DNA from: Gemmatales bacterium
GTDB taxonomy: Bacteria; Planctomycetota; Planctomycetia; Gemmatales; HRBIN36
Direction of reading: 5' to 3'
DNA length: 64,000 nucleotides
NCBI GenBank assembly: GCA_041640595.1
Contig: JBEPZY010000003.1
Location: forward strand, 116,773-180,772
Made by a program: the position numbers and the translations under genes
Shown: piece by piece, positions 10,663 through 63,477 of the stretch
How positions within the stretch are numbered: position 1 is the stretch's first letter
Layout: the number at the start of each line of letters is the position of its first letter
The notes under the pieces: generated by a model
The model's input: the letters and a program-made list of their open reading frames with translations, nothing else
What the model was told of the DNA's origin: nothing
The model's database searches: none

Positions 10663-10836
10663 CCCGGCCCTGTTTCGCCCTTGGCATGTTCCCAACGCCG
10701 AGATGCTCTGCTGTCCGCCGGGATGGATTTGTTCGGCGCTCCCCCGCCGTCTGCATGTTCCCAGTACTGCGCAATTCCTGTCACCTACCACGGTGATTCG
10801 CTCGGCGTTGTGTCGCCGTTTACATGTTCCCAGCAC
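10663..10836. repeat. Degenerate 69-bp-period repeat (three ~36-bp units); CRISPR-like or decayed tandem repeat
   Basis: CATGTTCCCA at 10685, 10754, 10823; units 10663-10698, 10732-10767, 10801-10836, the last two with a CGGCG-n6-CGCCG hairpin. Confidence 0.5.
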
Positions 10837-10979
10837 CCTGCGAATCCCGTCGCTTAGCGCAACGTCCCACGCCGTTCGCTGTTAGTCTGCCCTCCATCCA
10901 GGCCTGTTTTCGACAGGGCAGCTCCGTGTCTTTGTCTCTTCTTCATGAAGGCAAAACTCCCTCCAGACGATTGTCGGAG

Positions 10980-11483
10980 TTAGGCTTCTGGTGCCGAGAC
11001 CGAACCGAATAGGTTTTCTTCGGGTGGCGGAGGCTCGCTCCGACGAAACGCCTCAATAATCGCTTCTACCAGTTTCTCCGGCGGACTCGGATACGGAAGA
11101 GATATGGGTTCCTTACCCAAAGTCTGCCAGGGACTGACCTTTTTCCGCGGGTAAACTCTAATCTCGTCACCGACAACACTCACAGTGACCCCCCAGATTT
11201 GATTAAGGATCTTCCTTGTAAGCCGTTTTGCACCGGTCATCACCGAGTGCACATCTTGCGATCTAGGTCTGGGGTCATAAACGCTATAGGGCAGCTTTTT
11301 ACCAGAACACCGCAGCGCCTCATACACTAATTCCCCTTTCTTCTCCGCAGGCTCCGTCGCATCTACGGTAAACCATTCGAGACCAAGGGTTGTGAAACCC
11401 TCAGCACTGATTGCGTGGGGCACTATATACCACTTTCCCTTGTAGAGAAGAACCTTAGCAGACTGATCCCGATCCGCCTGCAT
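10980..11483 (-). CDS. Putative CdiI-type (DUF1436-like) toxin immunity protein
   Basis: 167 aa, lower GC than flanks; two internal motifs DATEPAEKKGELVYEALRCS and PYPSPPEKLVEAIIEAFRRS; lies directly downstream of a toxin-tip fragment. Confidence 0.6.
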   Translation of the reverse strand: MQADRDQSAKVLLYKGKWYIVPHAISAEGFTTLGLEWFTVDATEPAEKKGELVYEALRCSGKKLPYSVYDPRPRSQDVHSVMTGAKRLTRKILNQIWGVTVSVVGDEIRVYPRKKVSPWQTLGKEPISLPYPSPPEKLVEAIIEAFRRSEPPPPEENLFGSVSAPEA

Positions 11484-11509
11484 ACAATGTTTCCTTCTTG
11501 CTGTTCATT

Positions 11510-11688
11510 TTATTCAATTTTCTGAATAATAAAGCGTACACCTTTCTCTTTCGCATACTCCATAAGCTCTTCCAGCCACAGCACTCGCTGCTCGGGTTTT
11601 CTGTGGTGGAACTGCGTCTTTGCCACCGCATAGCATGATCGGCGATCTCCCCTCCGAATGAACAACTCTATTTTGCTGGCGATCCTGG
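11510..11688 (-). pseudogene. Start-less C-terminal fragment of a CdiA-CT-like nuclease toxin
   Basis: Frame not in the ORF track reads RIASKIELFIRRG...WLEELMEYAKEKGVRFIIQKIE*; interrupted upstream by a TGA inside the 34-bp repeat. Confidence 0.5.
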
Positions 11689-11795
11689 TTAGGATCGGTC
11701 CCCGCTCCGCTCACCGTATCCGCCTCTCACACGCATGCCGCAACCCCGCAGTTCTCCACGACTCGGATCGGTCCCTGTGCTCGGGAATGGAGTTG

Positions 11796-11897
11796 GTTCG
11801 TCGAATTGTGATCGCCCGTCGAAGGACTCGACGTCGATGCGAAGGCAAGTGCTCGTTCTGCGGATGTTCGTGGAATCGTGCTTGCCCGTCGAAGGAC
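11796..11897. CRISPR. CRISPR-like mini-array: two 32-bp repeats, one 38-bp spacer
   Basis: GTTCGTCGAATTGTGATCGCCCGTCGAAGGAC (11796-11827) and GTTCGTGGAATCGTGCTTGCCCGTCGAAGGAC (11866-11897), 28/32 identical. Confidence 0.5.
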
Positions 11898-11927
11898 CTG
11901 TCAGGTTCGATCGCCGACGGGTCTCGC

Positions 11928-12878: not shown

Positions 12879-12900
12879 GGGAGCGTCTCCATCGAGGACG

Positions 12901-13734: not shown

Positions 13735-13835
13735 GGGGCGCAAACTCCGTTACCGGGTTGGCTGACGTTCTTTGCGCAGACCCTCTGCGCCGATTCAGTT
13801 TCAGACTAGCAAAACGGCAACGGCAAAGCAATGGC

Positions 13836-16114: not shown

Positions 16115-18160
16115 ATGGCTTTCGGTCAGGCTATTCTCAGCGAAATCCGCCGTCTGCAGAATCTCCAGCAATACCGCAAAATCCACTGGGAAGGCTCCTT
16201 CTCGGAGTACCTCGACATTGTCAAACAGCATCCCGAGGTCACCCGCACAGCCTTCCAGCGGCTGTACGACATGATCTTGTCGCACGGCACCGAGGAAATT
16301 TTCGAGCATAAGGAAAAAATCATTCGCTACAAGTTCTTCACCGAATGGGCCTCGAAATACGGCGACGCGGTATATGGTCTGGAACGGCCATTGATGCAAT
16401 TGGTCAACACCTTCAAAGCCGCCGCCAAAGGTTTCGGTACTGAACGCCGCGTCCTGCTCCTGCACGGTCCGGTCGGGTCCGCCAAGAGCACCATTGTGCG
16501 CTTGCTCAAACGCGGCCTGGAAGAATATAGCCGCACCGATGAGGGAATGTTGTTTTCGTTCATGTGGAAAAGCGATAAATCCGGCTGGGAAAAGTGCCCC
16601 ATGCACGAAGAACCGTTGCATCTGGTGCCGGTGGAAATGCGGCCGGCGATCCTGGCCCGGCTCAACGAAGGGCGACGCGAAGATGAATTCCAGGTTACCA
16701 TTCGCGGCGAACTGTGTCCGTTCTGCCGGTTCATGTTCAACGAACGCTTGCAGCGCTATGACGGCGATTGGGCGGCCATGGTCGAAAACGAAATCAAGGT
16801 TTATCGCCTGATCCTCTCCGAACAAGACCGCGTCGGCATCGGTACCTTCCAGCCCAAGGATGAAAAGAACCAGGACTCCACAGAACTCACCGGCGATATT
16901 AACTACCGCAAAATTGCCGAATATGGTTCCGACAGTGATCCGCGGGCCTTCAATTTCGACGGCGAGCTCAACATTGCCAATCGCGGCCTGGTCGAATTTA
17001 TCGAGGTGCTCAAACTCGATGTTGCCTTCCTCTATGACCTGCTCTGCGCTTCGCAGGAACACAAAATCAAGCCGAAAAAGTTCGCCCAGTGCGACATTGA
17101 CGAAGTGATCATCGGACACACCAACGAACCGGAGTATCGCAAGCTGCAAAATAACGAATTTATGGAGGCCTTGCGCGATCGCACCGTCAAAATTGACATC
17201 CCCTACGTAACTCGCCTCCGCGACGAGATCAAGATTTACGAAAAGGACTTTAACCCCGAACGAGTCAAGGGCAAGCACATCGCTCCGCACACCATCGAAG
17301 TGGCCGCTATGTGGGCGGTCCTGACTCGCTTAGTGCCTCCGAAACATGCCAATCTCACCTTGTTGCAGAAACTCAAGCTCTATAACGGCAAGACTCTGCC
17401 CGGCTTCACCGAAGATAATATCATCGAGCTGAAGCGTGAGGCTCCGCATGAAGGCATGAGTGGCATCAGCCCACGCTATATCCAGGATAAGATCTCCAAC
17501 GCCCTGGTGGCCCATCCCGAAGAAACGTGCGTCAACCCGTTTATGGTTCTCCACGAACTGGAAGCGGGATTGCGTCATCACTCCCTGATCACCAGCGAGG
17601 AGCAGTACCGCCACTATAAAGAGCTTCTGCAAGTGGTACGCGAGGAATATGAGGACATCGTCAAGAACGAAGTCCAGCGAGCCATTGCCGCCGATGAAGA
17701 AGCTCTAAGTCGCCTCTGCGCCAACTATATTGATCACGTCAAGGCCTATACGCAGCGCGAAAAAGTTCGCAACCGCTACACTGGCGCTTTTGAAGAACCC
17801 GATGAACGCCTGATGCGTTCCATCGAGGAAAAGATTGACATTCCTGAGAGCCGCAAGGATGACTTCCGCCGTGAAATTATGAACTATATCGGCGCCCTGG
17901 CGATTGATGGCAAGAAATTTGACTATAAGACCAACGAACGCCTGCAAAAGGCCCTGGAACTCAAGCTGTTCGAGGACCAGAAGGATACCATCAAGTTGAC
18001 CAGCCTGGTCTCCAACGTCGTGGATAAGGCTACACAGGAAAAGATAGATGTCGTCAAGAGCCGACTCATTCGCAATTACGGCTACTGCGAAGTTTGCGCG
18101 ACGGATGTCTTGCAATTCGTCGCCAGCATCTTCGCTCGCGGCAGCACCAGCCGAAAATAA
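16115..18160 (+). CDS. prkA: PrkA/YeaG family AAA+ serine protein kinase
   Basis: [51 protein letters not shown]. Confidence 0.93.
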
Positions 18161-18352
18161 GATACTCACCGACAATCTCGCCATCACCAGCTGCTTAGCC
18201 TCTATGGATTTAGCAGCGCACGAGCAACGGAATCTGGCATCTATCGGCTGCAACCAGGCTTATATAAGCTGAGAAAACTTAGCGGTCTCGGCTTCCGTGA
18301 AACTATTTGGACCAACACACCGGCGATGTTTTCCAGCGAAAGTGAGCCGATC

Positions 18353-19453
18353 ATGGTACAGCGTATTCAGCGTGATTATGAACGATTCCGCAAGATCGTC
18401 CGCGGGAAAATCAAGAGCAACCTGAGCAAGTACATCACCCGCGGCGAACTAATCGGCAAGCGCGGCAACGATCTGGTTAGTATTCCCTTGCCGCAGATCG
18501 AGATTCCGCAGTTTCGTTATGGTTTGAAAGGGCGGGGCGGTGTCGGACAGGGAGATGGCGAGGTCGGTCAACCTCTTGGGCCACCGCAAACGGGCGACGG
18601 TAACCAGGCGGGAGATCAGCCAGGCGGTCATATTCTCGAAGTGGAATTAACCTTAGAAGAGCTGGCCGACATCCTCGGTGAAGAACTCGCCTTACCACGC
18701 ATCGAGCCGAAGGGGCGAAAGAACATCATCACCACGCGGGAACGTTATAGCGGGATTCGTCAGTCCGGCCCCGAATCTCTCCGCCATTTCAAACGCACGT
18801 TCAAGCGAGCGCTCAAGCGGCAAATTATTTCTGGCACCTATGATTTCGAAAAGCCGGTCATCGTTCCTATCCGCGAAGATAAGCAATACCGTAGCTGGAA
18901 AGAAATTCCGTTGCCGCAGAGCGTCGCCGTCATCATCTTGATGATGGACGTTTCCGGTTCCATGACCGATGAACAGAAGGAAATAGTCCGCATCGAGGCA
19001 TTTTGGATAGACACCTGGATTCGCGCCCATTATAAGGGAGTGCAACGGGTCTATATTATCCACGATGCCGTGGCTCAGGAGGTAGATGAACACACGTTTT
19101 ACCATACTCGCGAAAGCGGCGGTACTAAGATCAGCTCGGCTTACGAATTGGCCGACCAGATTATAGATAAGCGATTCCCACCGTCGGACTGGAACGTCTA
19201 TGCGTTCCATTTTTCCGACGGCGATAACTGGGGCGATGATATTCCTCACTGTCTCGAAATGCTGCGTAGCCGCCTGCTGCACAAAGTAAATCTTTTCGGT
19301 TACGGGCAGGTGGAAAGTCCTTATGGCAGCGGAGAATTCTTACATCACATCGAGGAGCTTACTGGCCAGTTCGACAACCTGGTGGTCAGCCACATACCTA
19401 ACCGTGAAGCCATTATTCGCTCTATCAAGGAGTTCCTCGGCAAGGGTAAATAA
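18353..19453 (+). CDS. YeaH/YhbH (DUF444) vWA-like protein
   Basis: [27 protein letters not shown]; located between prkA and spoVR. Confidence 0.92.
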
Positions 19454-19572
19454 TCGTGCTATGCCCACGACTAATCAGGCTTAGTGGCCGGCACAATGCT
19501 TAGAACCGCTCTGGCCTGCCGGTCAGCTTAGCTATCTGAACAATAAGCATAGCGGATGAAAAGGATAGACTC

Positions 19573-21150
19573 GTGCAAGACACCATGAGCCTGCTCAATA
19601 CGCCTTACGATACCTCGCTGACACCGGAATTGCGAGCCGTTCAGCAGGAAATCGAGGGGTACGCTCGCGAGTTTGGCCTCGATTTCTTCGAGGTGATTTT
19701 TGAGTTATTAGATGCCGACGACCTGAATGCGATTGCTGCCTATGGCGGCTTTCCGACGCGCTATCCCCACTGGTCGTTCGGCATGGCTTACGAAGAACTC
19801 AAGAAAACTTACGATTACGGACTGGCCAAGATTTACGAGCTGGTGATCAATAATGATCCGTGTTATGCCTATTTGATGCGAAGCAATAACCTGGTGGATC
19901 AGAAGCTGGTGATGGCACACGTGTATGGGCATTGCGACTTTTTCAAAAATAATGCGTTTTTCGCCCACACGAATCGCAAGATGATGGACGAGATGGCTAA
20001 TCATGGCATGCGTATTCGCCGCTATGCCGAAAAATACGGTGAGGATGAAGTGGAGGCGTTTCTGGATAAGTGCAAGAGTATCGAGGACCTGATTGACATT
20101 CATTCCGTGGCGATACGTCGTCGGGAAGAGCAGCCGCGTTTCGATTTCGAGGCGACACGCGAGGAAGAACCTATCCCGGTAACACGGTTCAAAACGAAGA
20201 CTTATTTAGACCCCTATATCAATCCTGAACAACTCCTGCGAGCCGAGGAAGAGCAAAAACGCAAGGAGCGGGAAGCAAGGTCCAAGAATTTTCCAGAGCA
20301 ACCCGAGCGTGATGTATTATTGTTCCTAATGCAGTATGCGCCCCTCAAACCCTGGCAGCGGGATATTCTGGGGATTATTCGTGAGGAGGCCTATTATTTC
20401 GCTCCCCAGGCTCAGACTAAGATAATGAACGAAGGCTGGGCGACTTATGTGCACAGCACGATCATGACCCGGCGGGCTCTGCATCCTTCGGAAGTGATTG
20501 ACTATTGCGATCATCACTCCGGTACGGTGGCGAGTCATGGCCCGCGGCTGAATCCTTATAAGTTAGGTCTGGAGCTCTTCCGCGACATTGAGTTTCGCTG
20601 GAACACCGGACGTTTCGGTAAGGAATATGAGGAGTGCGATGACCTGGAGAAAAAGCGAAACTGGGATTTAGGCTTAGGGCTAGGCAGGCAGAAAATTTTT
20701 GAGGTTCGTCGCACCCATAACGATATTACCTTCATTGACGAGTTTCTGACGCCGGAATTTTGCGTGGAACATAAGTATTTCACCTATGCCTGGAGTGAAC
20801 AAGCGGGTACATTTATTATCGAGTCGCGGGAATTTCAAAAAATCAAGCAGCGGCTTTTGTTCAACCTGACGAACTTTGGCAAGCCGATTATTAGCGTGGT
20901 GGATGGTAATTACCGCAACCGCGGGGAATTGTTATTGCGGCATGAGTATAATGGTGTGGACTTACGCCTGGATCATGCGATCGCCACCCTGGCTAATATC
21001 CAGGCGCTATGGACTCGACCTGTGCATTTACAAACGGTGGTCGAAGGGAAACCGACCCTGATCAGCCATGACGGAGCGGAGCACAGTATGAAGCCTCTGG
21101 GAGACAGCGATGACCCTCGGCGAGATGCTCCAGCAAAAACTCGCAGATAA
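19573..21150 (+). CDS. SpoVR family protein
   Basis: RYPHWSFG, IYELVIN, MAHVYGHCDFFKNN, TKIMNEGWA. Confidence 0.93.
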   Translation: MQDTMSLLNTPYDTSLTPELRAVQQEIEGYAREFGLDFFEVIFELLDADDLNAIAAYGGFPTRYPHWSFGMAYEELKKTYDYGLAKIYELVINNDPCYAYLMRSNNLVDQKLVMAHVYGHCDFFKNNAFFAHTNRKMMDEMANHGMRIRRYAEKYGEDEVEAFLDKCKSIEDLIDIHSVAIRRREEQPRFDFEATREEEPIPVTRFKTKTYLDPYINPEQLLRAEEEQKRKEREARSKNFPEQPERDVLLFLMQYAPLKPWQRDILGIIREEAYYFAPQAQTKIMNEGWATYVHSTIMTRRALHPSEVIDYCDHHSGTVASHGPRLNPYKLGLELFRDIEFRWNTGRFGKEYEECDDLEKKRNWDLGLGLGRQKIFEVRRTHNDITFIDEFLTPEFCVEHKYFTYAWSEQAGTFIIESREFQKIKQRLLFNLTNFGKPIISVVDGNYRNRGELLLRHEYNGVDLRLDHAIATLANIQALWTRPVHLQTVVEGKPTLISHDGAEHSMKPLGDSDDPRRDAPAKTRR

Positions 21151-25185: not shown

Positions 25186-25214
25186 TTGATTTGGACGAAG
25201 CTGGATTGTACAAT
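25186..25214 (+). promoter_or_regulatory. Sigma70-type promoter of the fluoride riboswitch operon
   Basis: TTGATT-17 bp-TACAAT, ending 7 nt before the riboswitch. Confidence 0.65.
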
Positions 25215-25221
25215 CTAACGC

Positions 25222-25285
25222 GGCGATGGGGTTCGCCGTGAACCGCAGCGGTTCCCTTGCGGAACCGTTGCTGATGACCCCTACC
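25222..25285 (+). ncRNA. Fluoride riboswitch (crcB motif)
   Basis: GGCGATGGGGTTCGCC...AACCGC...GCTGATGACCCCTAC matches the consensus, including GGGGT/ACCCC pseudoknot complementarity. Confidence 0.92.
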
Positions 25286-25330
25286 TTGCTGGGTTCTCCC
25301 CGGAAGGTGGGGGTCGCATCGGCGAATGGT

Positions 25331-28976: not shown

Positions 28977-29074
28977 CTGAGACGAACAACGCAGCTGAGG
29001 CGATGACGTGGCAGGGATGCTGGTACGATAGCAAGACATTTGCCTCAGACGAAAAATGTAGCTGAGGCGATGAC
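28977..29074. CRISPR. CRISPR-like mini-array E: two 31-bp repeats, one 36-bp spacer
   Basis: CTGAGACGAACAACGCAGCTGAGGCGATGAC (28977-29007) and CTCAGACGAAAAATGTAGCTGAGGCGATGAC (29044-29074), 27/31 identical. Confidence 0.5.
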
Positions 29075-29727: not shown

Positions 29728-29871
29728 TCGTACAGACCTCGACACTGTGCGCGTTGGATGCTGCAGGGGTGCTATATTGGTCTAAGCTGCGTCTTCGTAC
29801 AAACTGTCTTCCGGTTGTTGCGCATAGTCCAGCAAGATAGGTATTGGTCTAAGCTGTGTCTTCGTACAAAC
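29728..29871. CRISPR. CRISPR-like mini-array A: 30-bp repeats, 37-bp spacers
   Basis: TATTGGTCTAAGCTG(C/T)GTCTTCGTACAAAC at 29775-29804 and 29842-29871; in-phase remnant TCGTACAGAC ending at 29737 (period 67). Confidence 0.65.
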
Positions 29872-29920: not shown

Positions 29921-30034
29921 GCTCACGACCAGCCGTTAGTTGCTGAAGAACTTGCAACAAAGTACCAGCCTCTGCCGTCTTCCGTCTCAATGTAAAGGCT
30001 CACGACCAGCCGTTAGTTGCTGAAGAACTTGCAA
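29921..30034. CRISPR. CRISPR-like mini-array B: two identical 37-bp repeats, one 40-bp spacer
   Basis: GCTCACGACCAGCCGTTAGTTGCTGAAGAACTTGCAA at 29921-29957 and 29998-30034. Confidence 0.6.
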
Positions 30035-30203: not shown

Positions 30204-30703
30204 GGCGTACTTGACCGAAGCGCGAACCGACCATTGCAGCGCTTCGCGGACGCGAGGACGGCAAGGGGACGGACGGCGGCGTACTTGACCGGACGCGAAC
30301 GGAGCCATTGCAGCCCCGCCGGGAAACTGGCAGTGTCCTGGCCTCCCCTACGCCGCTGACCTATCCCCCGTTTTGGCAGTGGTGGGCGACTTCGCAACAC
30401 AGGGCTGGACAATGGCTTACGAAAAGTCTTGTTTTTTCAGCCTCGTGCACCGGACGTTCACATCGTTGCAGCGTTCAGCTGAGCCCATTGCAGCCAACCG
30501 TGTGCTTAGCGATCTGCGCCCCATTTCCAGGCCCCAAAGCAACTCGGTCAGGTTCCCCGTGGTCCACGAGCCCTTGAAAAACAGCCCCATCGGACGTAAC
30601 GAGCATCATCCCAGGGCCTTACGTCCAGGGGAGCCCCCTCAAAACTGGGGATAGGTCAGCCCTACGGCGTACTTGACCGAAACGCAAACGGAGCCATTGC
30701 AGC
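30204..30703 (+). CRISPR. CRISPR-like array C: three 37-38 bp repeats ending CCATTGCAGC, interrupted by a MITE
   Basis: Repeats at 30204-30240, 30278-30314, 30666-30703; removing the MITE restores a 74-bp period with 37-bp spacers. Confidence 0.7.
30356..30659. mobile_element. 304-bp MITE, IS4/IS10-like ends, copy 2
   Basis: 20-bp terminal inverted repeats CTGACCTATCCCCCGTTTTG / CAAAACTGGGGATAGGTCAG (1 mismatch); 10-bp target duplication CCCTACG(C/G)CG; no transposase. Confidence 0.85.
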
Positions 30704-31030: not shown

Positions 31031-31489
31031 AAAAGCAATTTCCCAGCGACCATGCGGAATCCCCGTCAGGCTAGCCGTCGCTGCTTATGCATTATAGGAG
31101 GCCGATTCAAATCGCGGCAGGTACTACACGTTTCGCCCGAAGCAACAAGCGGACGCGTAGTTACAGCTCCTTTTCACCGGGCTGGTATTTCTGCATCGGA
31201 AGGGGTAAGCAAATCCCCGTGGTTGCCCATAAGCATTTCAGTCCGACCGTCCCGTGTCATTTTCGCTGATTCGTCTCGCGCCGTTCCTGTCGGCCAACTC
31301 GCCATAACAAACGCTCTCGTGGGCATGCTCACTGTTGTCGGTCGCAGGACGGGTATGAGATACAAAGTGCGGACCTTGCAGCGTAAACGGGACCATCGAG
31401 CGAGTGCGGTCAGCTTGGGCCGACTGTGGGAGATGAACCATTCTTCCGAGTGCGTGTCCGGCACACCGCGGAGAATATCCGAGCGACCT

Positions 31490-34220: not shown

Positions 34221-34320
34221 TGGTAACGATGATCGTCGCTCGTGGCAATGGTGCTCGCCGCTTCCGGTTGTGTGGGCGGATGGCGTCGCGGGTGCGCGTT
34301 TTCGATTTGCGGGGACGCGC

Positions 34321-34933
34321 GGTTTTGCAAGGTGGGTTCATGCGCTGGCACTGCGCATTGTCGCCCAGCACACCGCCAGGACACTAGGTTTTGCAAGGTG
34401 GGTTCATGCGCTGGCACTGCGTATCGTCGCCCAGCACACCGCCAGGGCGCCAGGTTTTGCACGGTGGGTTCATGCGCTGGCACTGCGTATCGTCGCCCAG
34501 CACACCGCCAGGGCGCCAGGGTTTGCACAGCGGGTTCATGCGCCGGTATCGCGTATCGTCGCACAGCACACCGCCAGGGCGCCGGGTTTTGGACGGTGGG
34601 TTCATGCGGTGGCACTGCGTATCGTCGCCCAGCACACCGCCAGGGCGCCAGGTTTTGCACGGCGGGTTCATGCGCCGGTATCGCGTATCGTCGCACTGCA
34701 CACCGCCAGGGCGCCAGGGTTTGCACAGCGGGTTCATGCGCTGGCATCGCGTATCGTCGCCCAGCACACCGCCAGGGCGCCAGGGTTTGCACAGCGGGTT
34801 CATGCGCCGGTATCGCGTATCGTCGCACTGCACACCGTCGGGGCGCCAGGTTTTGCACGGCGGGTTTATGCGCTGGCACTGCGCATTGTCGCACAGCACA
34901 CCGCCAGGGCGCCAGGTTTTGCACGGCGGGTTA
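34321..34933. repeat. 66-bp tandem repeat, nine full copies plus a partial
   Basis: Unit GGTTTTGCACGGTGGGTTCATGCGCTGGCACTGCGTATCGTCGCCCAGCACACCGCCAGGGCGCCA starting at 34321, 34387, 34453 ... 34915. Confidence 0.95.
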
Positions 34934-35141
34934 ACGCGAGCCACGGGTAGCCGGAACTCATAGCACTGGCATGGTCGCCTTGGCCAGGGTTTGCAGCGAC
35001 CACCAGCGCCTGTTCTTGTGCTGGCTTCGTGCCTGAGCGCAAGCATTGTCTCAGTGCTGGTTGGGTGAGCCTGTGCGGGCACGGAAACATACAATCTTGC
35101 GGAGACGCACCAGGCAATCATTCAGCAGGAGATAACCAGCA

Positions 35142-44276: not shown

Positions 44277-44390
44277 GTAGCAGCTTTGGGAGCAATTCCA
44301 GAACTGCAAAACCACGCTCAAGGCCGTTTGGACGTCTTGGCACCAGGTACGGGCGTAGCAGCTTTGGGAGCAATTCCAGAACTGCAAAAC
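44277..44390. CRISPR. CRISPR-like mini-array D: two identical 36-bp repeats, 42-bp spacer
   Basis: GTAGCAGCTTTGGGAGCAATTCCAGAACTGCAAAAC at 44277-44312 and 44355-44390; palindromic; partial third copy AACTGCAAAAC ends at 44246. Confidence 0.72.
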
Positions 44391-44785
44391 CGCTCCGGCG
44401 CGGGCATCCAGGTGGGCCTGGGGTTCACGGCGGGACCCAGGTAAGCGAATGCCCCTAATGACACCGCCGATTTCTGCGGGCACAGAGGGCGTTGATGAAT
44501 CGAGGTTACGAACATCTGGCCGAGACGGGGTCCGACACCTGGCAACCGAGGATAATCCCAGCCGCCGCTTGTTACACTGGTGCAGGAATGGCGACAGCGG
44601 GTGTGCGTGCGTTGTTCCTGCCGCAGAACCTGACCCTACCGGTTCCGTTGCAGGAATGGCCGCCATTTTGAAAGCTGCGGCTCGAATCGTCGGGTCGGAG
44701 GTTAAGGCTGAGCCGGCGACAGTTGCGGTACTGGCAGCAGGACTTTGGACAGTTGCGGATGGGTCGGAAGCTATCGCGGAGGCGA

Positions 44786-46363
44786 TTACAGTTCCCGCTC
44801 GATCAGTTGCAGTAATTCACAGGCTCGCCAGGAGTTGCCGCTCAGTTGCAGAGTAGCATTGTCGCGAAGCCAGGCGGAGACTTTGCGTTCGGCAGCGATG
44901 ACGGTGCTGTGATTGCGACCGCCAAAGTACCGCCCAATTTCGCCGTAGGGCAGGCCGGTATGTTTGCGGGCCAGGTACATGGCAATCATCCGCGGGTAGC
45001 TTGCCGAGCGCACTTTTTCCCTTCCTCGCAGCAAACCGGGCCGCAGATGCAGAACACGACTGACAGCTCGTTCCACATCCCGCAGGGTTACCTGACCACA
45101 CCGCGGTCGCATCCAGTGATTGAGTGCTGCCTGAGCCAGCTCCGGCGTTACTGCCTTTTGCTGGACAGTGGCGTAATGGTGTACGGCGTAAAGTGCCCCT
45201 TCGAGTTCGCGAACGTTGCCCCGCACGGTTTGGGCAAGGTAATCCAGCACAGGGGCAGGGAAATCGCAAGCCAGCCGTTCCGCTTTCACTGCCAGCAATC
45301 GCCGCCGCAAGTCCTGGTCTGGCAAATCCATAGACCAAACCGCTCCGCCCAGCAAGCGGTCTGTAAGCTGCGGCAACCAGCGGAGCAGTCGGGGATGGCG
45401 ATCACTGGTGGCCACCAGCACACGCTGGCCGCGACTCAGCGCCTCGATGGTGTGCAGCAGTTCTTCCTGCGTAGCCCGTTTGCCTTCGAGAAATTGCAAA
45501 TCGTCCAGCAGCAGGGCTTGCAGAGAGCGAAAGCGTTTGCGAAACTCCACGAGCTTTCCCTGGCGGAGAGCTTGCAAAAACTGGTTGGTGAAATCTTCCG
45601 CCGTCAGATACGCGACGCGACTGGTTCCGAAGGTTGCCACCAGGCGTTCCGCCAAGCCCTGCAAAAGATGTGATTTGCCGACGCCGTGCGGGCCAAATAG
45701 CGTCAATGGTACGCCAAGCGGTCGCCTGGCAGCACCAAACCAGGCGGTATCCTGACGCACCGCTTCGAGAATGCGCATCACCGCCGCATAGGCCAGACGG
45801 TTCGACTCACCCACCAGGAATTCGTCCAGTCTGGTCGTCGCCCTCAGCTGGTGGCATGCCGCCAAGCCCGCGAGAGGCGTTTCGTGCTGGGTGATTGCTT
45901 CAACGTCCGGTCGAACCGGCGAAGAATCACCCGAAGCCGATTCGGAATATCGGAGGCGAAACTCGTCGCGGCAAGCGGCATCGGGCAAGTCACCATCCGT
46001 GGCTCCCGAACCGGATTGTTCTATCGCGGCGGGATTGACGGCATTGCTCGTCCGTTCTCCCTGACGCTGCGCCTGAAACAGAGCGGGATCGATGACAAAG
46101 CGAACCTGGACGGGATGCCCGGCCACGGATTCTGCTGCCGATTGGATGGACCGGGCAAACGTGGTTTGAAGCCACTCCAGCAGAAAGCGATTAGGCACGC
46201 CGATCAGGAGTTGTTCGTCCTGCCAGTGAAAGCGTGTTTGCTGTGCGAACCAGAGGCGATAGCGCTTCTCCCCAATGCGTTGAGCCAGTTCCTGCGCAAA
46301 GGAAGCGACCCAATCCGTCAGTGTCGGCACGGGTGTCCTCCCGGTGCGGCATCCTGTAGCCAT
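44786..46363 (-). CDS. dnaA: Chromosomal replication initiator DnaA (or DnaA paralogue)
   Basis: Domain I YRLWF..VPNRF, GPHGVGKSHL, LLLDDLQF, NVRELEGAL, domain IV RMIAMYLARK..IGRYFGGRNHSTVI. Confidence 0.92.
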   Translation of the reverse strand: MATGCRTGRTPVPTLTDWVASFAQELAQRIGEKRYRLWFAQQTRFHWQDEQLLIGVPNRFLLEWLQTTFARSIQSAAESVAGHPVQVRFVIDPALFQAQRQGERTSNAVNPAAIEQSGSGATDGDLPDAACRDEFRLRYSESASGDSSPVRPDVEAITQHETPLAGLAACHQLRATTRLDEFLVGESNRLAYAAVMRILEAVRQDTAWFGAARRPLGVPLTLFGPHGVGKSHLLQGLAERLVATFGTSRVAYLTAEDFTNQFLQALRQGKLVEFRKRFRSLQALLLDDLQFLEGKRATQEELLHTIEALSRGQRVLVATSDRHPRLLRWLPQLTDRLLGGAVWSMDLPDQDLRRRLLAVKAERLACDFPAPVLDYLAQTVRGNVRELEGALYAVHHYATVQQKAVTPELAQAALNHWMRPRCGQVTLRDVERAVSRVLHLRPGLLRGREKVRSASYPRMIAMYLARKHTGLPYGEIGRYFGGRNHSTVIAAERKVSAWLRDNATLQLSGNSWRACELLQLIEREL

Positions 46364-46862
46364 CCGTGAAAAGAGGGCAACAGACCGGAACCACTTCCTG
46401 GCCGGTCACCTCGACTACCTCCCGAGCGGCTGGGTGCTAGGGAAGGACGATTGTAACCAAACCGGGTGAGTCTGGCCAAGAGAAAAATTTTCGTGCCAAT
46501 CTTCGCCCACAGGGTCGGTTGACCGAAGTTGCCGATTGGGGAAGTTTTGTTTCCCGGTATCAACAAAGAAAATTCACAAAAAATTTTCCAACCGGCCAAC
46601 CGCAGCTGTTAGCGTAGCGGCGAAGTTTGCAGCTGAAATCTGCGTAGCGCTCTCGCTTGTCGCCGCAACTCTTTTCGGATATGGCGATTATGGATTGCCA
46701 GCCGATTGGCGGATTCCAGCTGTCAATTCACCATCTCTTCCGGACATCCCCGCTGACACCCAACCCTGCTGCGGGCGATTTTGTGTAGTAAGCCGTGCGG
46801 GCCAGGCGTAGCAAGTTCCCCTTGCGGAAAGCAAGCCCGTTGGTTACACATGCTTGCTCCAG

Positions 46863-46958
46863 GGACGGCAGCCGAAGGTGAAACAGGCACGCGACAAGAC
46901 AAGCGGAGCAAAGACAAGCGTCCTGAAGAAGGACGGCCGCCGAAGGTGAAACAGGCAC
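46863..46958. repeat. 28-bp direct repeat pair with 40-bp spacer
   Basis: GGACGGC(A/C)GCCGAAGGTGAAACAGGCAC at 46863-46890 and 46931-46958. Confidence 0.7.
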
Positions 46959-47248
46959 CTTTTCTTTCCGCGATGACGGGTGAAACGCCGATCCAGCCAG
47001 GGCTGCGGGAACCGACATTCGTCCAGGTGCAGCTCCATCGTGTCGCAGCATGCACCGCACCGACTACAGCTGCCGGACGTCCAACGGGTCAACGCAGGTG
47101 TTCAGCCATGAGCAGCCCCGATCTGCTCCGGTATCGCTAAAGGCTTGAAACGCCTCGACTTGCTTTCGAGGAGAAAGCGCGGCCAGGCAACCAATGGCCG
47201 GCCGCATGGCATGAACGCTTCCATTGCTATCCTGCTAGCGGGGAACGT

Positions 47249-52800: not shown

Positions 52801-55211
52801 TAGTTTACCTGCCGACGTTCTCGGAGGTGGATATCATCCTGGATACGTTTCCTTTCGGCGGGCACACCATGACCTGCGAGGCTTTGTGGATGGGCGTGCC
52901 TCTGGTTACTTATTACGGGAAATGGCCATGTGGTCGGCTCTCGGCCAGCGTATTGACCAGCATTGGAGCGACCGATTGGATCGCGCGAAGTTTCGAGCAA
53001 TATATAGATATTGCTTGCTCACTAGCAGGTAACCCGCAAGAGCTGGCAAAACACAGACGGCAATTAAGACAGCGTGTGGAGCAGGCCTTATGCAACGGGG
53101 AAAAGTTTGTGCGGCAGCTGGAAGAGATTTATCGCCGCATGTGGCGGGAATATTGTCGGACACAGGGACTGCGCATTTCGGCAGATCAAGGGATTCGCCC
53201 ATTTCTGCACCCGCAACAGATTCAAGAGAACCGCGAAACCTTCGCTAGCTTAGATCGTGTATTAGCTGAAGCTGAGCAATTCCTCCAGCAAGGGCGATAC
53301 GCAGACGCGGAAGCTGCTTATCGGCGAATTCTGAATAGCGAACCCCGTTGCCCATCTGCCTGGCGCGGTTTAGGCCATCTCGCCGCGTTAGCCGGTCATC
53401 TTCAAGGTGCGGCGGAATGCTTAGCCCGGGCCATTCAGGGTGCTGTGGATAATCCGTTTTTCGCGGCCCAGTGTCATTTCGAACTGGCGCAACTTTATCG
53501 CCGGGCTGGACGACTTCCCGAAGCACTCGAACATGTCCGTCAGGCACTCGCACTCAGCCCTAATCAACCCCCGTTGCTTCGCTTTCTAGGCTCGGTCTGT
53601 TTTGATTTAGGGCTCTCTGCCCAGGCGGTGGAAGCTTATCGCGCTTATTTAGAACAACGCCCACACGATGCCGAAACGTGGAATGATCTGGGCAACGCAT
53701 TTCGACAGATGGAGCGCAATGAGGAGGCCATCGCGGCTTATCGTCGAGCCTTGGATATTAAACCTAATCTGAGCCCGGCTCTGGCGAACATTGCCAACCT
53801 GCTTGCCGAAGAGGGCCACACCGAGGAAGCACGGGAACATTATCGTCGCGCTTATGTGCATCAGCCACTGAACCGCCTGCGTTTCTTATCCGAGACCACG
53901 TTGCCGGTGATCTATACTTCAATGGAACACCTGTATGAAACGCGAGCCGCCCTGGAAAAATCTATCCGCCAGCTTATCGAGGAACGTGTATTTATAGACC
54001 CCACGCAAGAGCTGTTTCCGACTCACTTTTACCTTGCCTATCAGGGGATGAATGACCGTGAGCTGCACCAGCTAATCGCGCGTTTAGGAAATGGCCCACG
54101 AAAATTACAACTGCCGGAACCCCATCGGCCAGGACGAAACAGGAAAATCAAGATCGGCTTTTTGTCGCGTTACTTGCAAACGCACACCATCGGGCAGCTC
54201 AATATAGGTCTTATCAGCCACCTCGATCGCAGTCGCTTCGATGTGTATGTGCTATCGTTGTCTCCGCCGGATAAATATCTTGGCCAGCGGTTCCGCGAGG
54301 TAGCGGATTATTATTTAGTGCTGCCGCCGCAAATTCCGTCTGCATTGCAACAGCTAGTGCAGCTAGGGCTGGATATCCTTTATTATCCCGATATCGGCAT
54401 GGATGCGATGAGCTACACGCTGGCGTTCAGCCGACTTGCTCCGGTGCAGTGTTGCAGTTGGGGACATCCGGTGACGACGGGTTTGCCGACCATGGATTAC
54501 TTTGTTTCCAGCGCTACTGCGGAGACTGCTGAAGCGGATGATCATTACAGCGAAAAGTTGTTGCGCCTGAGCCGGCTAAACGTCGTGTATGAGAGACCGA
54601 AGCTCGTGGGCCGGCAACCTGACCGCCAGGAATTTGGTTTACCCCAGCACGGGCACATTTACCTGTGCCCGCAAACGCTGTTCAAGTTCCATCCGGAGTT
54701 CGACAACCTCCTGGCGGAAATTTTGCGACGTGATCCGGCCGGCTGGCTGGTGTTGATTGAGGGCAAGTTCAAAAACTGGACGGAGCTGCTGCTGGCGCGA
54801 TTTCGCCGAACTATGCCGGACGTGGTGGAGCGTGTGCATTTTGTCTCCAAGCTCCCGCGGGACGATTTCCTTCGCCTGCTGACACTGGCCGACGTGATGA
54901 TTGACCCAATTCATTTCGGCGGTGGCAACACCAGCTACGAGGCTCTGGCGCTGGCGGTGCCGATCGTCACCTGGCCTTCACCATTTCTGCGATGTCGGCT
55001 CACTCTGGCCATGTACCGGCAGATGGATTTCATGGATTTGGTGGCGACCAGCGCAGCGGAGTATGTAGAAAAAGCGGTACGGATCGCGACGGATGCGGAA
55101 TATCGGGAGCATGTTCGTCAGGCTATCCGCGAACGAGCCGATGTCCTTTACGACGACCGTGCCGTGGTTCGTGAACTGGAAGGCTATTTCGAACAGTGGG
55201 TACGCGGCTGA
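49857..55211 (+). CDS. TPR protein with three tandem GT41 (SPINDLY/OGT-like) glycosyltransferase modules
   Basis: Three TPR+catalytic units: RLRIGYVSPDF..WMGVPV, PLRIGYVSPDL..WMGVPL, KIKIGFLS..WGHPVTTG..GGNTSYEAL; GTG start with AGGAG RBS. Confidence 0.9.
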   Translation: MNAEHWVEQGRKHHTAGRWRDAEICYRQALALDPRHVEALHLLGLLAHQAGHSEDAIQLIRQALDIQPHYAIAWNNLATIYHDRQQLRFAHECLERALQLQPDYATAHNNLGEIYKALGHVRKALDCYRRALACDPNFLAARSNYLMTLLYDPDQELSSFLEEVQRWGNYPVPRHLASQKRWSLNTNPHRRLRIGYVSPDFRKHAVMRFFLPILEAHDPDQVEVYLYAQIPAADAVSERLRKLASGWRVISLLSAAEVARLIQQDHIDILVDLAGHTRRNRLDVFALQPAPVQCTYLGYPGPTGLPTIRFRFGDAYLFPDAAPTWHTEEIVRLNSGFFAFAPPDNAPEVSSLPCLDNGYITFGSHHPLIKLNDRVLRLYKQVLDAVPHSKLLFFRDQLRDWALEDFQKRLAAIGLSPDRLIIASPTAEEIDYLRTYHRVDIVLDAFPFTGHTMTCESLWMGVPVLTLSGDRPWSRLSRSVLERLGLQEWITYTPDEFVERARELAAQSERLASLRARLRSLILQRLTNGSTVARDLEDAYRRLWQEWCAQHEPRATQTISVPSQETPDATTVVTPEPENVTNVVVSDIPNTAETWHERGLALAEEKKFSEAIECFRQALSLRPNYLIAELNLGMCYKNLGYLDEAARIFRNCIDKYPGDPAPLIQLAATYKQLNRLDDGLTCLRQACRISPPFGPAWHNYLVYLNYHPRSKPEEIYQAHRQWGERAAVPLVRKFTNALDPERPLRIGYVSPDLYEHPVSRFIEPILRHHNKAEFAVYVYAGVRRPDRVTRRLQELADCWRDIVRLSTEQIADQIRADRIDILVDLTGHYADNYLAVFAQQPAPVQVTWLGYPHTTGLSTIHYRLTDRVLNPHEEPPYATERLVYLEGGFSCFQPPQPAPEISPPPCLETGMITFGSHHDLKKLNDDVYWVWSKILKRVPNSRLLFFRSSHMPPIQDHLRRKFRAYGIEPERIVVRQPPFGDLVYLPTFSEVDIILDTFPFGGHTMTCEALWMGVPLVTYYGKWPCGRLSASVLTSIGATDWIARSFEQYIDIACSLAGNPQELAKHRRQLRQRVEQALCNGEKFVRQLEEIYRRMWREYCRTQGLRISADQGIRPFLHPQQIQENRETFASLDRVLAEAEQFLQQGRYADAEAAYRRILNSEPRCPSAWRGLGHLAALAGHLQGAAECLARAIQGAVDNPFFAAQCHFELAQLYRRAGRLPEALEHVRQALALSPNQPPLLRFLGSVCFDLGLSAQAVEAYRAYLEQRPHDAETWNDLGNAFRQMERNEEAIAAYRRALDIKPNLSPALANIANLLAEEGHTEEAREHYRRAYVHQPLNRLRFLSETTLPVIYTSMEHLYETRAALEKSIRQLIEERVFIDPTQELFPTHFYLAYQGMNDRELHQLIARLGNGPRKLQLPEPHRPGRNRKIKIGFLSRYLQTHTIGQLNIGLISHLDRSRFDVYVLSLSPPDKYLGQRFREVADYYLVLPPQIPSALQQLVQLGLDILYYPDIGMDAMSYTLAFSRLAPVQCCSWGHPVTTGLPTMDYFVSSATAETAEADDHYSEKLLRLSRLNVVYERPKLVGRQPDRQEFGLPQHGHIYLCPQTLFKFHPEFDNLLAEILRRDPAGWLVLIEGKFKNWTELLLARFRRTMPDVVERVHFVSKLPRDDFLRLLTLADVMIDPIHFGGGNTSYEALALAVPIVTWPSPFLRCRLTLAMYRQMDFMDLVATSAAEYVEKAVRIATDAEYREHVRQAIRERADVLYDDRAVVRELEGYFEQWVRG

Positions 55212-55427
55212 ACTTGCTTGGAGCAGCGTATTTTAGGTACGAACGAAGGCCCGCCGAGTGCTCAGGTACGCGGCTAAACTGGCTTAGAGAAACCCCGAGT
55301 GGTTTGGGAGATGCGCCTGTGCACATGGCTGCGCACGCAGTAAAGCTTGCTTCGAGCAACGGCGGAGGCTTCGTTGGGACTAAGCTCGTCTGCCGCCAAG
55401 TGTACAGCCAATTTTGCTTCGAGCAAC
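55199..55427. CRISPR. Degenerate CRISPR-like array F: four ~29-bp repeats, 37-38 bp spacers
   Basis: Copies at 55199-55227, 55265-55293, 55332-55360, 55399-55427 (period 66/67/67), consensus GGTACGCGGCTAAACTTGCTTCGAGCAAC. Confidence 0.62.
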
Positions 55428-57068: not shown

Positions 57069-57071
57069 GGT

Positions 57072-59077: not shown

Positions 59078-59154
59078 GTTTCCGCCCTCGCTTAAAGTGC
59101 CCTCAGGAACTCAGCGCTCGCCACGACGGACATCCGATTGATAATACGTCGGCA

Positions 59155-59250
59155 CTCGGTTCCGGACAATGCGAACCGAGCACTCGGTATGCTGGCTGCC
59201 AGCGCGTGTCAGTCCGTCTCGTTTCCGCACAATGCGAACCAAGCACCCGG
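59155..59250. repeat. 33-bp direct repeat pair with 30-bp spacer
   Basis: CTCGGTTCCGGACAATGCGAACCGAGCACTCGG (59155-59187) and CTCGTTTCCGCACAATGCGAACCAAGCACCCGG (59218-59250). Confidence 0.6.
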
Positions 59251-59527: not shown

Positions 59528-59717
59528 GCATCAAACTCCGCGGGCAAGCTCGGTTCAGCAAGCTGAAGAAATAACTACGACGGGTTACGCCAGGGCGAGC
59601 CGTTTCCAACTCCACCGGCACTTCCAGTTCAGCAAGGCGACCCGGTAGCGGCGGAGATAAGCGCACTGCCAGCGCGAGCCGCTTCAATCACCGCGACCGA
59701 TCTCGCGTCAGCAAGAC
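59528..59717 (-). CRISPR. Degenerate CRISPR-like array G: three 37-bp repeats
   Basis: Minus-strand copies GTCTTGCTGACGCGAGATCGGTCGCGGTGATTGAAGC (59681-59717), GCCTTGCTGAACTGGAAGTGCCGGTGGAGTTGGAAAC (59602-59638), AGCTTGCTGAACCGAGCTTGCCCGCGGAGTTTGATGC (59528-59564); spacers 42 and 37 bp. Confidence 0.6.
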
Positions 59718-59726
59718 ATCGGAAGC

Positions 59727-61448: not shown

Positions 61449-61742
61449 GATTTGTTCCCCCCGCTGCTGTCGTCCTGATTCAGATAGCCAATCGCCTCCA
61501 GCCGCGCGGACTCTTTACACACTCAGTGACACCAGCCATATCCCGCGCAGAGGCTTCACAGGTATTGTAACTGCCCCATTTCTACTAGCAAGAGCCTTAG
61601 CACAGGCTGGCATTCACAAAACTTCTCTCACTTTGGCAAGATTTAGCAAATGCGCACTGTGTAGCGACTTTGCTACAGCTTGCCCGGACGTTTGCCGTGT
61701 CGCAGCAATGGATGCTCAACGGGCGACCGGGCTTATGACGGC

Positions 61743-63068
61743 CTAGCCCACCAGTTCCCGGACCGGTTTGCCTGTTGGCACCAGCTCAATGGGTCGGCCA
61801 TCGTAAGAGCGGTACCAGCGGTCTAAAGGCACACCCAGGGCGTAGTAAATCGTAGCGGCCAGGTCCTGAGGCGTTACCGGGCTATCCACAATGTATTCGC
61901 CCAGAGCATTGGTGCGACCGACGATGACTCCGGTCTTCACTCCACCGCCGCCGATGCAAACCACCGAGGCAGTTCCCCAGTGATCACGCCCTGCCGATGA
62001 ATTGATTTTCGGTGTCCGGCCAAAATCGCCCATCCAGACCACCAGCGTACTGTCCAACAGCCCGCGTGCTTTCAGGTCACGCAGCAGGGCTGAGTAACCC
62101 TGGTCAATACGCGGCAGCAATCGCTCCTTCAAGCTGCGGAAGTTGTTCTGATGCGTATCCCAGCCGCCATCGGTGATGGTGACGAAATGCACCCCCGCCT
62201 CGATGAGCCGACGTGCCAGCAGGCACGACTGCCCAAAGGTGTTCCGCCCGTATTCATCGCGGAGCTTGTCCGGTTCCTGGCTCAGATCAAATGCCTTCTT
62301 GGCGGCCGGTGAGGTGATCAGACTGAACGCCTTCTCCCAGAACGCATCGCGGGTCTGTACCACGCCTGCTGCTTCTTCCTGCACCTGGCGCTGGAACTGT
62401 TCCAGAGTTTGCAGCATTCGCTGTCGGCGGGTCAAACGTTGCTCATCCAGACCGGGTGGCGGCGTCAAATCGCGAACGCGGAAATTCGGAGAATTCGGGT
62501 CCTCCAGCACTTCAAACGGGTTGTACTGGTCGCCGAGAAATCCGGCGATCCCGCCTCCAAATCGCCTGTCCACGTACCGATTCAACTGCACAAACGGGAA
62601 CATGCCATTCTTGTAGCCCCGCTCTTTCGCAATGACCGAACCGTAGCACGGATAAATCAGAGACGGATTGAATCGATGCCCGGACATCATCAGATGGTCG
62701 GCCACGCCGTGGCTGGAGTTTTGCGGGTCGCAGCTGCGAATCACACTGAACTTGTCCAATTCTCTGGCCAGCTTCGGCAGATGTTCGCAGAACTTTACAC
62801 CGGGGATGGTCGTATCCACCACGCCAAATTCGCCGCGAATCTCCGGCGGTGCCTCCGGTTTTGGATCGAACGTGTCAATATGACTGGGGCCTCCCTGCAT
62901 CCACATGAGAATGCAGCTGACCGTCTTGCGGTCGCGCCCGCCCTGGGCCTGAGCACGCAGCCATTCCGGGAGCGTCAACGCGAACGCCGACAGGCCGCCA
63001 ATCTCCAGAAACTGACGACGATTCAGCAGTTCGCAATCCCGCGTTGTTCCGACCGGCAACTTCAGCAT
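61743..63068 (-). CDS. DUF1501 family protein
   Basis: RRQFL, GGPSHIDTFDPKP, LLARRLIEAGV, WDTH, GDFGRTP, GRDHW. Confidence 0.93.
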   Translation of the reverse strand: MLKLPVGTTRDCELLNRRQFLEIGGLSAFALTLPEWLRAQAQGGRDRKTVSCILMWMQGGPSHIDTFDPKPEAPPEIRGEFGVVDTTIPGVKFCEHLPKLARELDKFSVIRSCDPQNSSHGVADHLMMSGHRFNPSLIYPCYGSVIAKERGYKNGMFPFVQLNRYVDRRFGGGIAGFLGDQYNPFEVLEDPNSPNFRVRDLTPPPGLDEQRLTRRQRMLQTLEQFQRQVQEEAAGVVQTRDAFWEKAFSLITSPAAKKAFDLSQEPDKLRDEYGRNTFGQSCLLARRLIEAGVHFVTITDGGWDTHQNNFRSLKERLLPRIDQGYSALLRDLKARGLLDSTLVVWMGDFGRTPKINSSAGRDHWGTASVVCIGGGGVKTGVIVGRTNALGEYIVDSPVTPQDLAATIYYALGVPLDRWYRSYDGRPIELVPTGKPVRELVG

Positions 63069-63368
63069 GGCAGGTCTCCTCTGGCAGGTCTATTGCGGTG
63101 GGAAATAGTTGGCAGGCTACTGCAATTATAATAATCGCCCGTTTGAGCGTCCAGAGAAAAAAGTTTCCGCACGCCTCCGTTGGCAAATCACTTTTCACAT
63201 GCTGACCCTGGCAATGTTCCAAGCCGCACCACCCTTCGTTTCCGTCCCTGCCTTCGGTCTTAAACAACGGCTTCCGGAAAGTCACAGGCCCAGTTTGGCC
63301 AGGCGTTACCGAACGTCCATCAGGCTCAGCCAGTTGGCCACCAGATACGTTTGCAACCCGGGGGCCGG

Positions 63369-63477
63369 CTTTCGTCCACGCTCAACGTCCCTGGCAGCGG
63401 CGACTATGTCCTTGTTAGTAATCGCCACGGCGTTGGTGCCGATTTCGTCCACGCTCAAAACACATGGCAGGAGCAAG
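63369..63477 (-). CRISPR. Degenerate CRISPR-like mini-array H: two 36-bp repeats, 37-bp spacer
   Basis: Minus-strand GTCGCCGCTGCCAGGGACGTTGAGCGTGGACGAAAG (63369-63404) and CTTGCTCCTGCCATGTGTTTTGAGCGTGGACGAAAT (63442-63477). Confidence 0.5.

Follow-up and report, generated by a model that had tools for sequence, protein, structure and literature searches.

The stretch of DNA analysed here, referred to as the window, comprises 64,000 nucleotides of a Gemmatales bacterium (Planctomycetota; Planctomycetia; Gemmatales; HRBIN36) and corresponds to positions 116,773 to 180,772 of contig JBEPZY010000003.1 in assembly GCA_041640595.1 (genome G000, C3:116773-180772; assembly of 4.45 Mb in 42 contigs). 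Scattered through it are short loci in which copies of a direct repeat enclose an insert of spacer length, resembling minimal CRISPR arrays. These mini-loci, which recur across the genome, are considered here as candidate products of spacer integration outside the resident CRISPR arrays.

Loci in the window were identified by a direct-repeat search, and their geometry was read from a lower-threshold listing. Where the initial annotation had placed repeat-spacer-repeat structures at twelve positions, six clear units and five weaker or older ones were recovered, and the remaining position proved to be an ordinary tandem repeat. Four of the clear units lie on the plus strand. At 11796..11897, a 32-nt repeat (28/32 identical, 88%) ending in ...GGAC encloses a unique 38-nt insert at a period of 70 nt. 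The other three belong to class A, characterized by a 30-nt ruler: 28977..29074 (repeat of 28-31 nt, 87% identical, period 67, repeat end ...GATGAC); 29775..29871 (30-nt repeat, 29/30 identical or 97%, 37-nt insert, period 67, end ...CAAAC), which is probably the locus initially annotated at 29728; and 46863..46958 (28-nt repeat, 27/28 identical or 96%, period 68, end ...GGCAC), an intergenic locus upstream of dnaA. Class B, with a 37-nt ruler, is represented by two units with perfect 37-nt repeats (100%), one at 29921..30034 with no strand assigned (40-nt insert, period 77) and one on the minus strand at 44277..44391 (41-nt insert, period 78), whose repeat starts with GT on the plus strand and so ends with AC on the minus strand.

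The weaker or older loci, for which no strand was assigned, show various degrees of degeneration. At 30204..30315, a locus of uncertain class within a dispersed repeat family, GGCGTACTTGACCG... recurs at period 74 with insertions and deletions, only 14 nt being exact; paralogs of the segment 30355-30660 are present on contigs C12, C8 and C9. The locus at 55199..55289 is an older class A-like unit (25-nt repeat with 3 mismatches, period 66), and that at 59155..59250 is of uncertain origin (33-nt repeat, 88%, period 63, off both of the genome-wide period peaks described below). Three diverged copies at 59531..59715 (32 nt, 75%, periods 74 and 79) possibly represent an old class B locus, and 63370..63470 is an old class B-like locus with a repeat of 16-28 nt (82% over 28 nt) and a period of 73. 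The tandem repeat at 10646..10856 is degenerate, with a unit of approximately 69 nt that is alike over its whole length, including the supposed spacers. The direct-repeat search bore out the earlier observation that almost every locus has a repeat sequence of its own. Likewise, the window was described as lacking cas genes, and this holds as far as tested: no Cas family was matched in Pfam among the 45 large open reading frames (ORFs) of the window, and both Cas1 matches of the genome lie elsewhere (C8 and C1). At 34313-34972 lies a separate structure, a full tandem repeat with a 66-nt unit (9.3 copies, 89% matches), crossed by ORFs without a Pfam match. Although its period equals the class A unit, repetition extends over the entire unit, which distinguishes it from a repeat-spacer array.

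Two canonical CRISPR systems reside in this genome. Array A contains 317 repeats of a 30-nt unit at C8:2-21080, and 27 more are found at the end of C10, which looks like one array split by a contig break. Array B contains 247 repeats of a 37-nt unit at C1:359749-377935. Exactly two Cas1 matches were detected genome-wide, one adjoining each array (C8 and C1), accompanied by two Cas2 matches in the same arrangement; the genome therefore does possess Cas1-Cas2 integrases, and its cas loci could be typed as the initial annotation had advised. According to NCBIfam and Pfam, the C8 locus encodes Cas4, Cas1b, Cas2, Cas3, Cas5 and Cas7 (type I-B), followed by Cmr1-6 (type III-B), and the C1 locus encodes Cas2, a group-II-intron-type reverse transcriptase (RT; RVT_1) and Cas1 as separate ORFs. 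When oriented by protospacer flanks, both canonical repeats end in ...GGGATTGAAAC. The cas1b frame of the C8 locus (L003:1941-3317), located 76 nt from cas4, spans 458 aa with about 155 aa preceding the Cas1 domain, and a similar 477-aa frame is present in the same-genus genome G003; this region may be an N-terminal extension of the Cas1b integrase.

The window loci belong to a pattern that extends over the entire genome. All contigs were scanned for interspaced direct repeats (seed 10, ungapped extension, score of at least 18, length of at most 48, gap of at least 12), and the outcome was alike in a version that used seed 12. With the canonical arrays set aside, the pairs number 133 at periods 65-68 and 159 at periods 72-76, against a background of approximately 1.2 pairs per period value at periods 40-62 and 1.7 at 95-125, and the same scan of a block-wise Markov-shuffled genome returned 0 pairs at every period. 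Two period peaks matching the canonical arrays, as had been predicted, are therefore present, and the pattern is far above chance. Chaining of pairs at periods 64-77 yielded 316 pairs in 266 loci, most of which contain two repeats (229 loci), with three repeats in 28, four in 7 and six in 2. Some loci are repeats of unrelated kinds, including coding repeats of the leucine-rich repeat (LRR) type with a period of 72, a Met-rich repeat and low-complexity DNA with a heptad pattern. At M230 and M264 the supposed spacers, too, resemble each other, and these loci are true tandem duplications.

The length of the duplicated sequence separates the two period classes. Among pairs scoring at least 24, the median duplicated length is 30 nt (n=48) at periods 65-68 and 37 nt (n=86) at periods 72-76; duplicated length differs between period classes with a Mann-Whitney p of 2e-12, and the two-dimensional table has modes at 29-31 and 36-38 nt. 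The canonical arrays, processed with the same code, give 30/31 and 37/38 nt, that is, the target duplication length equals the canonical repeat length of the resident systems (30 and 37 nt). The inserts, whose length was taken as period minus repeat length, follow the same correspondence. For lengths of 35, 36, 37, 38 and 39 nt, the class A mini-loci contribute 23, 54, 39, 17 and 6 inserts and the canonical A array 36, 165, 108, 26 and 5 spacers; the corresponding counts are 23, 41, 45, 43 and 7 for class B mini-loci and 12, 81, 99, 38 and 11 for canonical B. The modes thus lie at 36 nt (class A) and 36-38 nt (class B) in mini-loci and canonical arrays alike. At M253 (C10:38659), a duplication of at least 34 nt with period 75 and one of 28 nt with period 67 share a common start base, and it looks as if this site had been used by both modules, each with its own ruler.

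Because many of these loci sit in dispersed repeat families, paralogous copies within the genome can serve as empty sites. When the genome was queried with a construct of flank, one repeat copy and flank, a paralog contiguous across the site was found for 24/229 single-pair loci. Among 16 aligned paralog pairs, 13 display a single in-register gap of 64-75 nt and 2 display this gap split in two, while one (M35) is broken into four shorter gaps; the gap equals one repeat together with the insert. The relationship is illustrated by a family of four copies (C1:321.5 kb, C1:329.5 kb, C3:419.0 kb and C2:80.5 kb): the 67-nt unit M14 is present in one of the four copies, with a single target copy in the other three, and the same family carries the 73-nt unit M147 in two of its copies and the 66-nt unit M15 in one. 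In this M14/M147/M15 family, nothing corresponding to the inserted 35-37 nt is seen in the empty copies. Empty single-target sites, which the initial annotation had expected in relatives, were therefore obtained from paralogs inside the genome, the relatives being too diverged to align (same-genus genomes are 75-80% identical in genes).

Additional evidence on the reality and age of the loci comes from public metagenome contigs of runs X3, X4, X5 and X8, which derive from four studies and represent strains approximately 98-99% identical. Loci 28977, 29775 and 46863 are present in these strains: the first is spanned gap-free by contigs of X3 and X8, the insert of the second carries a single-nucleotide polymorphism at 29824 in X3, X4 and X5, and the third is spanned by record 31 of run X8. 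Given their occurrence in strains from four studies, the loci are neither assembly artefacts nor very recent.

With regard to the origin of the inserts, 275/316 have no other match in the genome, in agreement with the earlier impression that the spacers are mostly unique, and the 41 with other genomic matches mostly represent duplicated segments bearing the same locus. When the mini-spacers were compared with 587 canonical spacers, the insert of M57 (C2:174386, class A) was found to overlap canonical spacer C8:12370 over 30/31 nt with a shift of about 2 nt (E 2e-11). Contig C15 is matched at 28/30 nt by M94 and by M163, an inverted duplicate of M94, and also, with a 5'-CCG flank, by M135_1, a spacer of the orphan array M135 (C3:328836), whose repeat is near-canonical. 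To judge from these matches, at least some of the inserts would have been drawn from the same invader pool as the canonical spacers. A further class B mini-spacer, that of M249 (C9:139927), matches cas1b of the type I-B module at 26/27 nt; its source may be the cell's own DNA or RNA, or alternatively a close relative.

Contig C15 (L142, 9585 nt, GC content 0.50) is itself matched by 36 canonical A spacers, of which 32/36 lie on one strand and 28/36 have an NGG (= CCN) flank. The perfect matches are concentrated at the cas-proximal end of the array, and the whole pattern suggests recent and probably primed adaptation against a small mobile element. Among the C15 proteins, Pfam identified a matrixin-like peptidase and, below threshold, a match resembling protein-primed PolB; none of the nine ORFs has a PHROG match, and no relative of the 657-aa protein was found in IMG/VR. 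C15 is probably a novel small virus or plasmid of this host.

The sequences selected for duplication bear little resemblance to CRISPR repeats. Compared in register with the canonical repeats, they agree at a near-random level (11.6 versus 10.6 of 30 positions, and 13.6 versus 13.0 of 37), and M135 is the only locus with a canonical-like repeat. A short signature is nevertheless shared at the ends with the canonical repeats, both of which terminate in ...GAAAC. The dinucleotide AC occurs at one or both repeat ends in 25/61 class A pairs and 26/64 class B pairs, compared with a frequency of 0.107 in random genomic windows (p ~1e-9 for each class), and class B ends often read [GC]AAC or ...TTGAAAC. 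Class A sites oriented by AC show a tendency towards GG immediately upstream and towards G at the first position, comparable to the canonical junction ...GCGCTGG|GTAC, and this orientation is supported by M57. A strong target motif was also sought by expectation-maximisation with free orientation and was rejected, as little information above control was obtained; no leader motif shared by the mini-loci was detected beyond the weak GG.

In terms of genomic distribution, 31% of the 266 loci fall within an open frame of at least 600 nt, versus 82% of 3000 random positions, so that the intergenic location described at the outset holds statistically. Locus density averages 6 per 100 kb and is highly uneven, from 0 in C1:400-900 kb up to 19 per 100 kb on C2; it correlates with the non-coding fraction (Spearman 0.49, contigs C1 and C6 contrasting with C2-C4), which offers a partial explanation. 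A reading-frame filter acting on loci in genes was examined as well and set aside, since periods divisible by 3 are only slightly in excess in long open frames (0.48 versus 0.36) and the comparison is confounded by real coding repeats of 24 aa. The number of loci increases with repeat divergence as far as the detection limit, perfect repeat pairs being limited to 6 in class A and 4 in class B; the process is accordingly both old and ongoing, and many events must have decayed beyond recognition. The detectable units total 22,233 nt. Certain sites have been reused: M17 contains four repeats with three unrelated spacers, and M1, M26, M50, M61 and M243 contain three repeats each.

The same scan was applied to sampled DNA of related genomes. 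Two genomes of the same genus that bear the same 37-nt repeat type as G000 gave 0 pairs at periods 64-77 in 400 kb (G002) and 2 pairs, both at period 74, in 376 kb (G003). One pair at period 75 was found in 396 kb of G004, no pair in 400 kb of G027, in which no Cas1 was found, and, outside its own arrays, just two coding-type period-72 pairs in G019. The contrast between G000 and G002 is strong but not absolute, because locus density in G000 itself is uneven.

A third period peak at 87-93 nt is attributable to an unrelated hairpin repeat family. In the window this family forms a dense array at 31489-34262, in which two subtypes of a GC-rich hairpin repeat (CCACGGCGGGCTGACGCCCGCCGCTC and variants) alternate at a spacing of 87-93 nt, with a metagenome depth 10-100 times that of the flanks. 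About 986 copies with at most 5 mismatches occur genome-wide, mostly on contigs C2, C3, C4 and C12, and the family looks like intergenic repeats of the repetitive extragenic palindrome/bacterial interspersed mosaic element (REP/BIME) type. Mini-loci are enriched two- to threefold within 200-1000 nt of a hairpin. A structural link between the two was considered and discarded, as no fixed offset exists; the enrichment is read as common residence in non-coding DNA.

On the basis of the geometry, the cas genes, the paralogous empty sites and the shared spacer targets, all of which are direct observations, the mini-arrays are very probably scars of ectopic Cas1-Cas2 integration by the two integrases of the genome itself, that is, neo-CRISPR loci. 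The two period peaks, the two cas1-cas2 modules, the mostly unique spacers and the paralogous empty sites thus favour one of the two readings offered by the initial annotation, a genome-wide fossil record of ectopic spacer acquisition. Under the proposed mechanism, an integrase would cut ordinary DNA at two staggered positions separated by the length of its repeat (30 nt in the type I-B module, 37 nt in the RT-linked one), and a prespacer of about 36-38 nt would be ligated in between. Gap repair would then duplicate the target, leaving target copy, spacer and target copy at a period of 65-68 or 72-76 nt. Site choice would depend only weakly on sequence, with AC at the spacer-side end of the repeat and, in class A, also GG|G at the other boundary, as at a real leader-repeat junction. 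The products would survive mainly in non-coding DNA and then decay by mutation, and a few sites would be hit again to give three or four repeats. The assignment of class A to the type I-B module and of class B to the RT-linked module is suggested by the two rulers, the order of the enzymatic steps is modelled on established knowledge of Cas1-Cas2, and catalysis by the resident integrases at these sites is predicted from sequence features; the loci themselves are presumably without function.

Several observations weigh against this interpretation and have to be set beside it. An estimated 5-10% of the 266 loci are unrelated repeats. The two perfect class B loci of the window have inserts of 40-41 nt, where the canonical maximum is 40, and the preference for particular sites is weak (8.2 versus 6.1+-0.36 bits in class A, 9.45 versus 6.79+-0.44 in class B). 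Only 3 independent mini-spacers of 316 are tied to a canonical spacer or to C15, and the C15 protospacer of M94/M163 lacks the CCN protospacer-adjacent motif. No orthologous empty site was found: the segment containing locus 46863 is absent or unalignable in G001-G003, where the upstream part alone of the dnaA-upstream region aligns. The loci are common to the metagenomic strains, with no empty allele among the contigs listed, which cannot bridge perfect 37-nt repeats. Finally, an empty paralog could in principle arise by deletion between direct repeats.

The other proposal of the initial annotation, a dispersed library of working mini-CRISPR arrays supplying guide RNAs, regulators or RNA anti-CRISPRs to cas systems encoded elsewhere, draws some support from the presence of Cas systems in the genome, including a type III-B effector, from M135, which with its near-canonical repeat and CCG-flanked C15 spacer could work as an orphan array, and from a few class B repeats that end in ...TTGAAAC or ...GAAAC like the canonical handle. 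Such a library would, however, require repeats recognizable by Cas6 and the effectors, and those of the mini-loci are locus-specific with near-random identity to the canonical ones. Repeat pairs also accumulate mismatches as neutral DNA would, hardly any loci occur in the sampled DNA of the two same-genus genomes, and in G000 the loci cluster in junk-like non-coding DNA and dispersed repeats. The proposal is not supported and is considered highly improbable.

Even smaller probabilities attach to two explanations that dispense with Cas1-Cas2 activity at the sites. Replication slippage, or another lineage-specific copying error, might generate local duplications at a fixed step in the manner of minisatellites, and true tandem duplications do exist here (window 10646-10856, M230 and M264), as does the 66-nt full tandem repeat at 34313-34972. 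Slippage nevertheless copies local sequence, whereas the 35-38-nt inserts have no counterpart in empty paralogs, and on this ground it is effectively excluded; spacer-to-spacer identity of approximately 0.4-0.6 in global alignment equals the level of unrelated sequences, and neither two duplication lengths equal to both canonical repeat lengths nor inserts matching a canonical spacer and an invader contig would be predicted. The remaining explanation, rated just as improbable as slippage, invokes either a small mobile element whose target-site duplication is unusually long or remnants of former canonical arrays that decayed and were dispersed by recombination. Target-site duplication is a hallmark of transposition, Cas1 descends from casposon integrases, and one orphan canonical-like array (M135) is indeed present. 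With 275/316 inserts lacking any other genomic copy, though, there is no element to move, and the duplicated sequences are local DNA, single in paralogs, rather than canonical repeats.

Ectopic integration by the resident modules has a broader implication that can be advanced only tentatively, namely that low-fidelity integration by two Cas1-Cas2 modules, of which one is RT-linked, constitutes a chronic, genome-wide insertional process in this hot-spring planctomycete species. If so, this process would have contributed 22 kb or more of DNA that can still be detected, and probably a much larger amount lost to decay, would help to build its unusually repeat-rich intergenic DNA and would repeatedly seed new arrays. 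The scarcity of scars in two same-genus genomes with the same repeat type would in that case suggest the recent loss of a fidelity factor, for instance a host protein that binds the leader or a motif in the leader itself.

Other features of the window were recorded during the analysis. The gene dnaA occupies 44786-46363 on the minus strand and encodes the DnaA_N, Bac_DnaA and Bac_DnaA_C domains. The intergenic region upstream of it (46364-47248) contains a genus-conserved block with a TGTCCACA-type box, which may be oriC; locus 46863 lies in that part of the region which is not conserved. At 25213-25290, genes for a cytidylate-kinase-like protein and a Na+/H+ exchanger are preceded by a fluoride riboswitch (Rfam RF01734, 46.7 bits), a conserved gene trio of prkA, DUF444 (yeaH-like) and spoVR-like genes spans 16115-21150, and the ORF at 37270-38295 ends in an acidic, Glu/Asp-rich tail (38212-38295) derived from GAG/GAA/GAC repeats.

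In the literature consulted, off-target integration is documented mainly by over-expression and in vitro assays, with natural evidence remaining circumstantial (10.1101/148544). The present genome provides a natural data set of several hundred events, generated by two integrases with different rulers in one cell. It could be used to derive the minimal target rules of type I-B and RT-linked adaptation modules, to estimate the cost of integrase infidelity from the depletion of events in genes, to investigate what enforces fidelity, as sister species with the same repeat type lack the scars, and to follow the first steps of array birth. Standard CRISPR finders miss such loci, although their scars can form a visible share of intergenic DNA.

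The closest precedent is the neo-CRISPR work of Nivala, Shipman and Church (2018), which according to 10.1101/148544 was performed in Escherichia coli with artificially up-regulated acquisition machinery and was accompanied by circumstantial evidence in two other species. As in those loci, a repeat-length duplication of ordinary DNA surrounds a spacer-length insert, a second hit can seed an array, and the process depends on the Cas1-Cas2 of the cell, a dependence that in the present case is deduced from the resident modules. The difference lies in the nature of the record, which here is natural, comprises approximately 270 detectable events and involves two modules (type I-B and RT-linked), each with its own ruler. 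Isolated arrays, for which off-target acquisition has been proposed as one origin (Shmakov et al. 2020, as cited in PMC13142298 and PMC8616872), resemble the mini-loci in lying away from cas genes and in having an origin attributed to integration outside the array. They were detected by standard finders, whereas 229/266 of the loci described here have only two repeats, and the repeats of the mini-loci bear no relation to those of cas-adjacent arrays.

Other parallels concern individual properties of the process. In the CRISPR1 and CRISPR3 systems of Streptococcus thermophilus, ectopic spacer acquisition inside the array has been described (PMC7999890); there too the native machinery integrates away from the leader-proximal repeat, but the target is a genuine CRISPR repeat within an array and not, as here, non-CRISPR DNA. 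Off-target integration by Pyrococcus furiosus Cas1-Cas2 into plasmid substrates in vitro (PMC6698737) similarly reveals minimal elements and a ruler, to which the AC-end and GG|G preferences observed here correspond, although that system is a biochemical assay and the present one consists of genomic scars filtered by selection. The mini-arrays and solitary repeats of viruses (Faure 2019; Medvedeva 2019; both according to the summary in PMC8616872) likewise contain one spacer between two repeats with no cas genes nearby. Their repeats, according to that summary, are identical to the canonical repeats of the host or closely resemble them and reside in mobile elements, whereas the duplicated sequences in this genome are locus-specific chromosomal DNA, with M135 as the sole exception. 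Canonical arrays, defined by a shared conserved repeat and by three or more repeats with a leader, form a different category, which M135 approaches in its repeat. The literature searched contained no account of a single natural genome with off-target integrations numbering in the hundreds, a statement that Nivala 2018, Shmakov 2020 and their supplements may qualify. Compared with these systems, the mini-loci represent a known kind of event at an exceptional natural scale, with two integrases at once and with internal empty-site controls.

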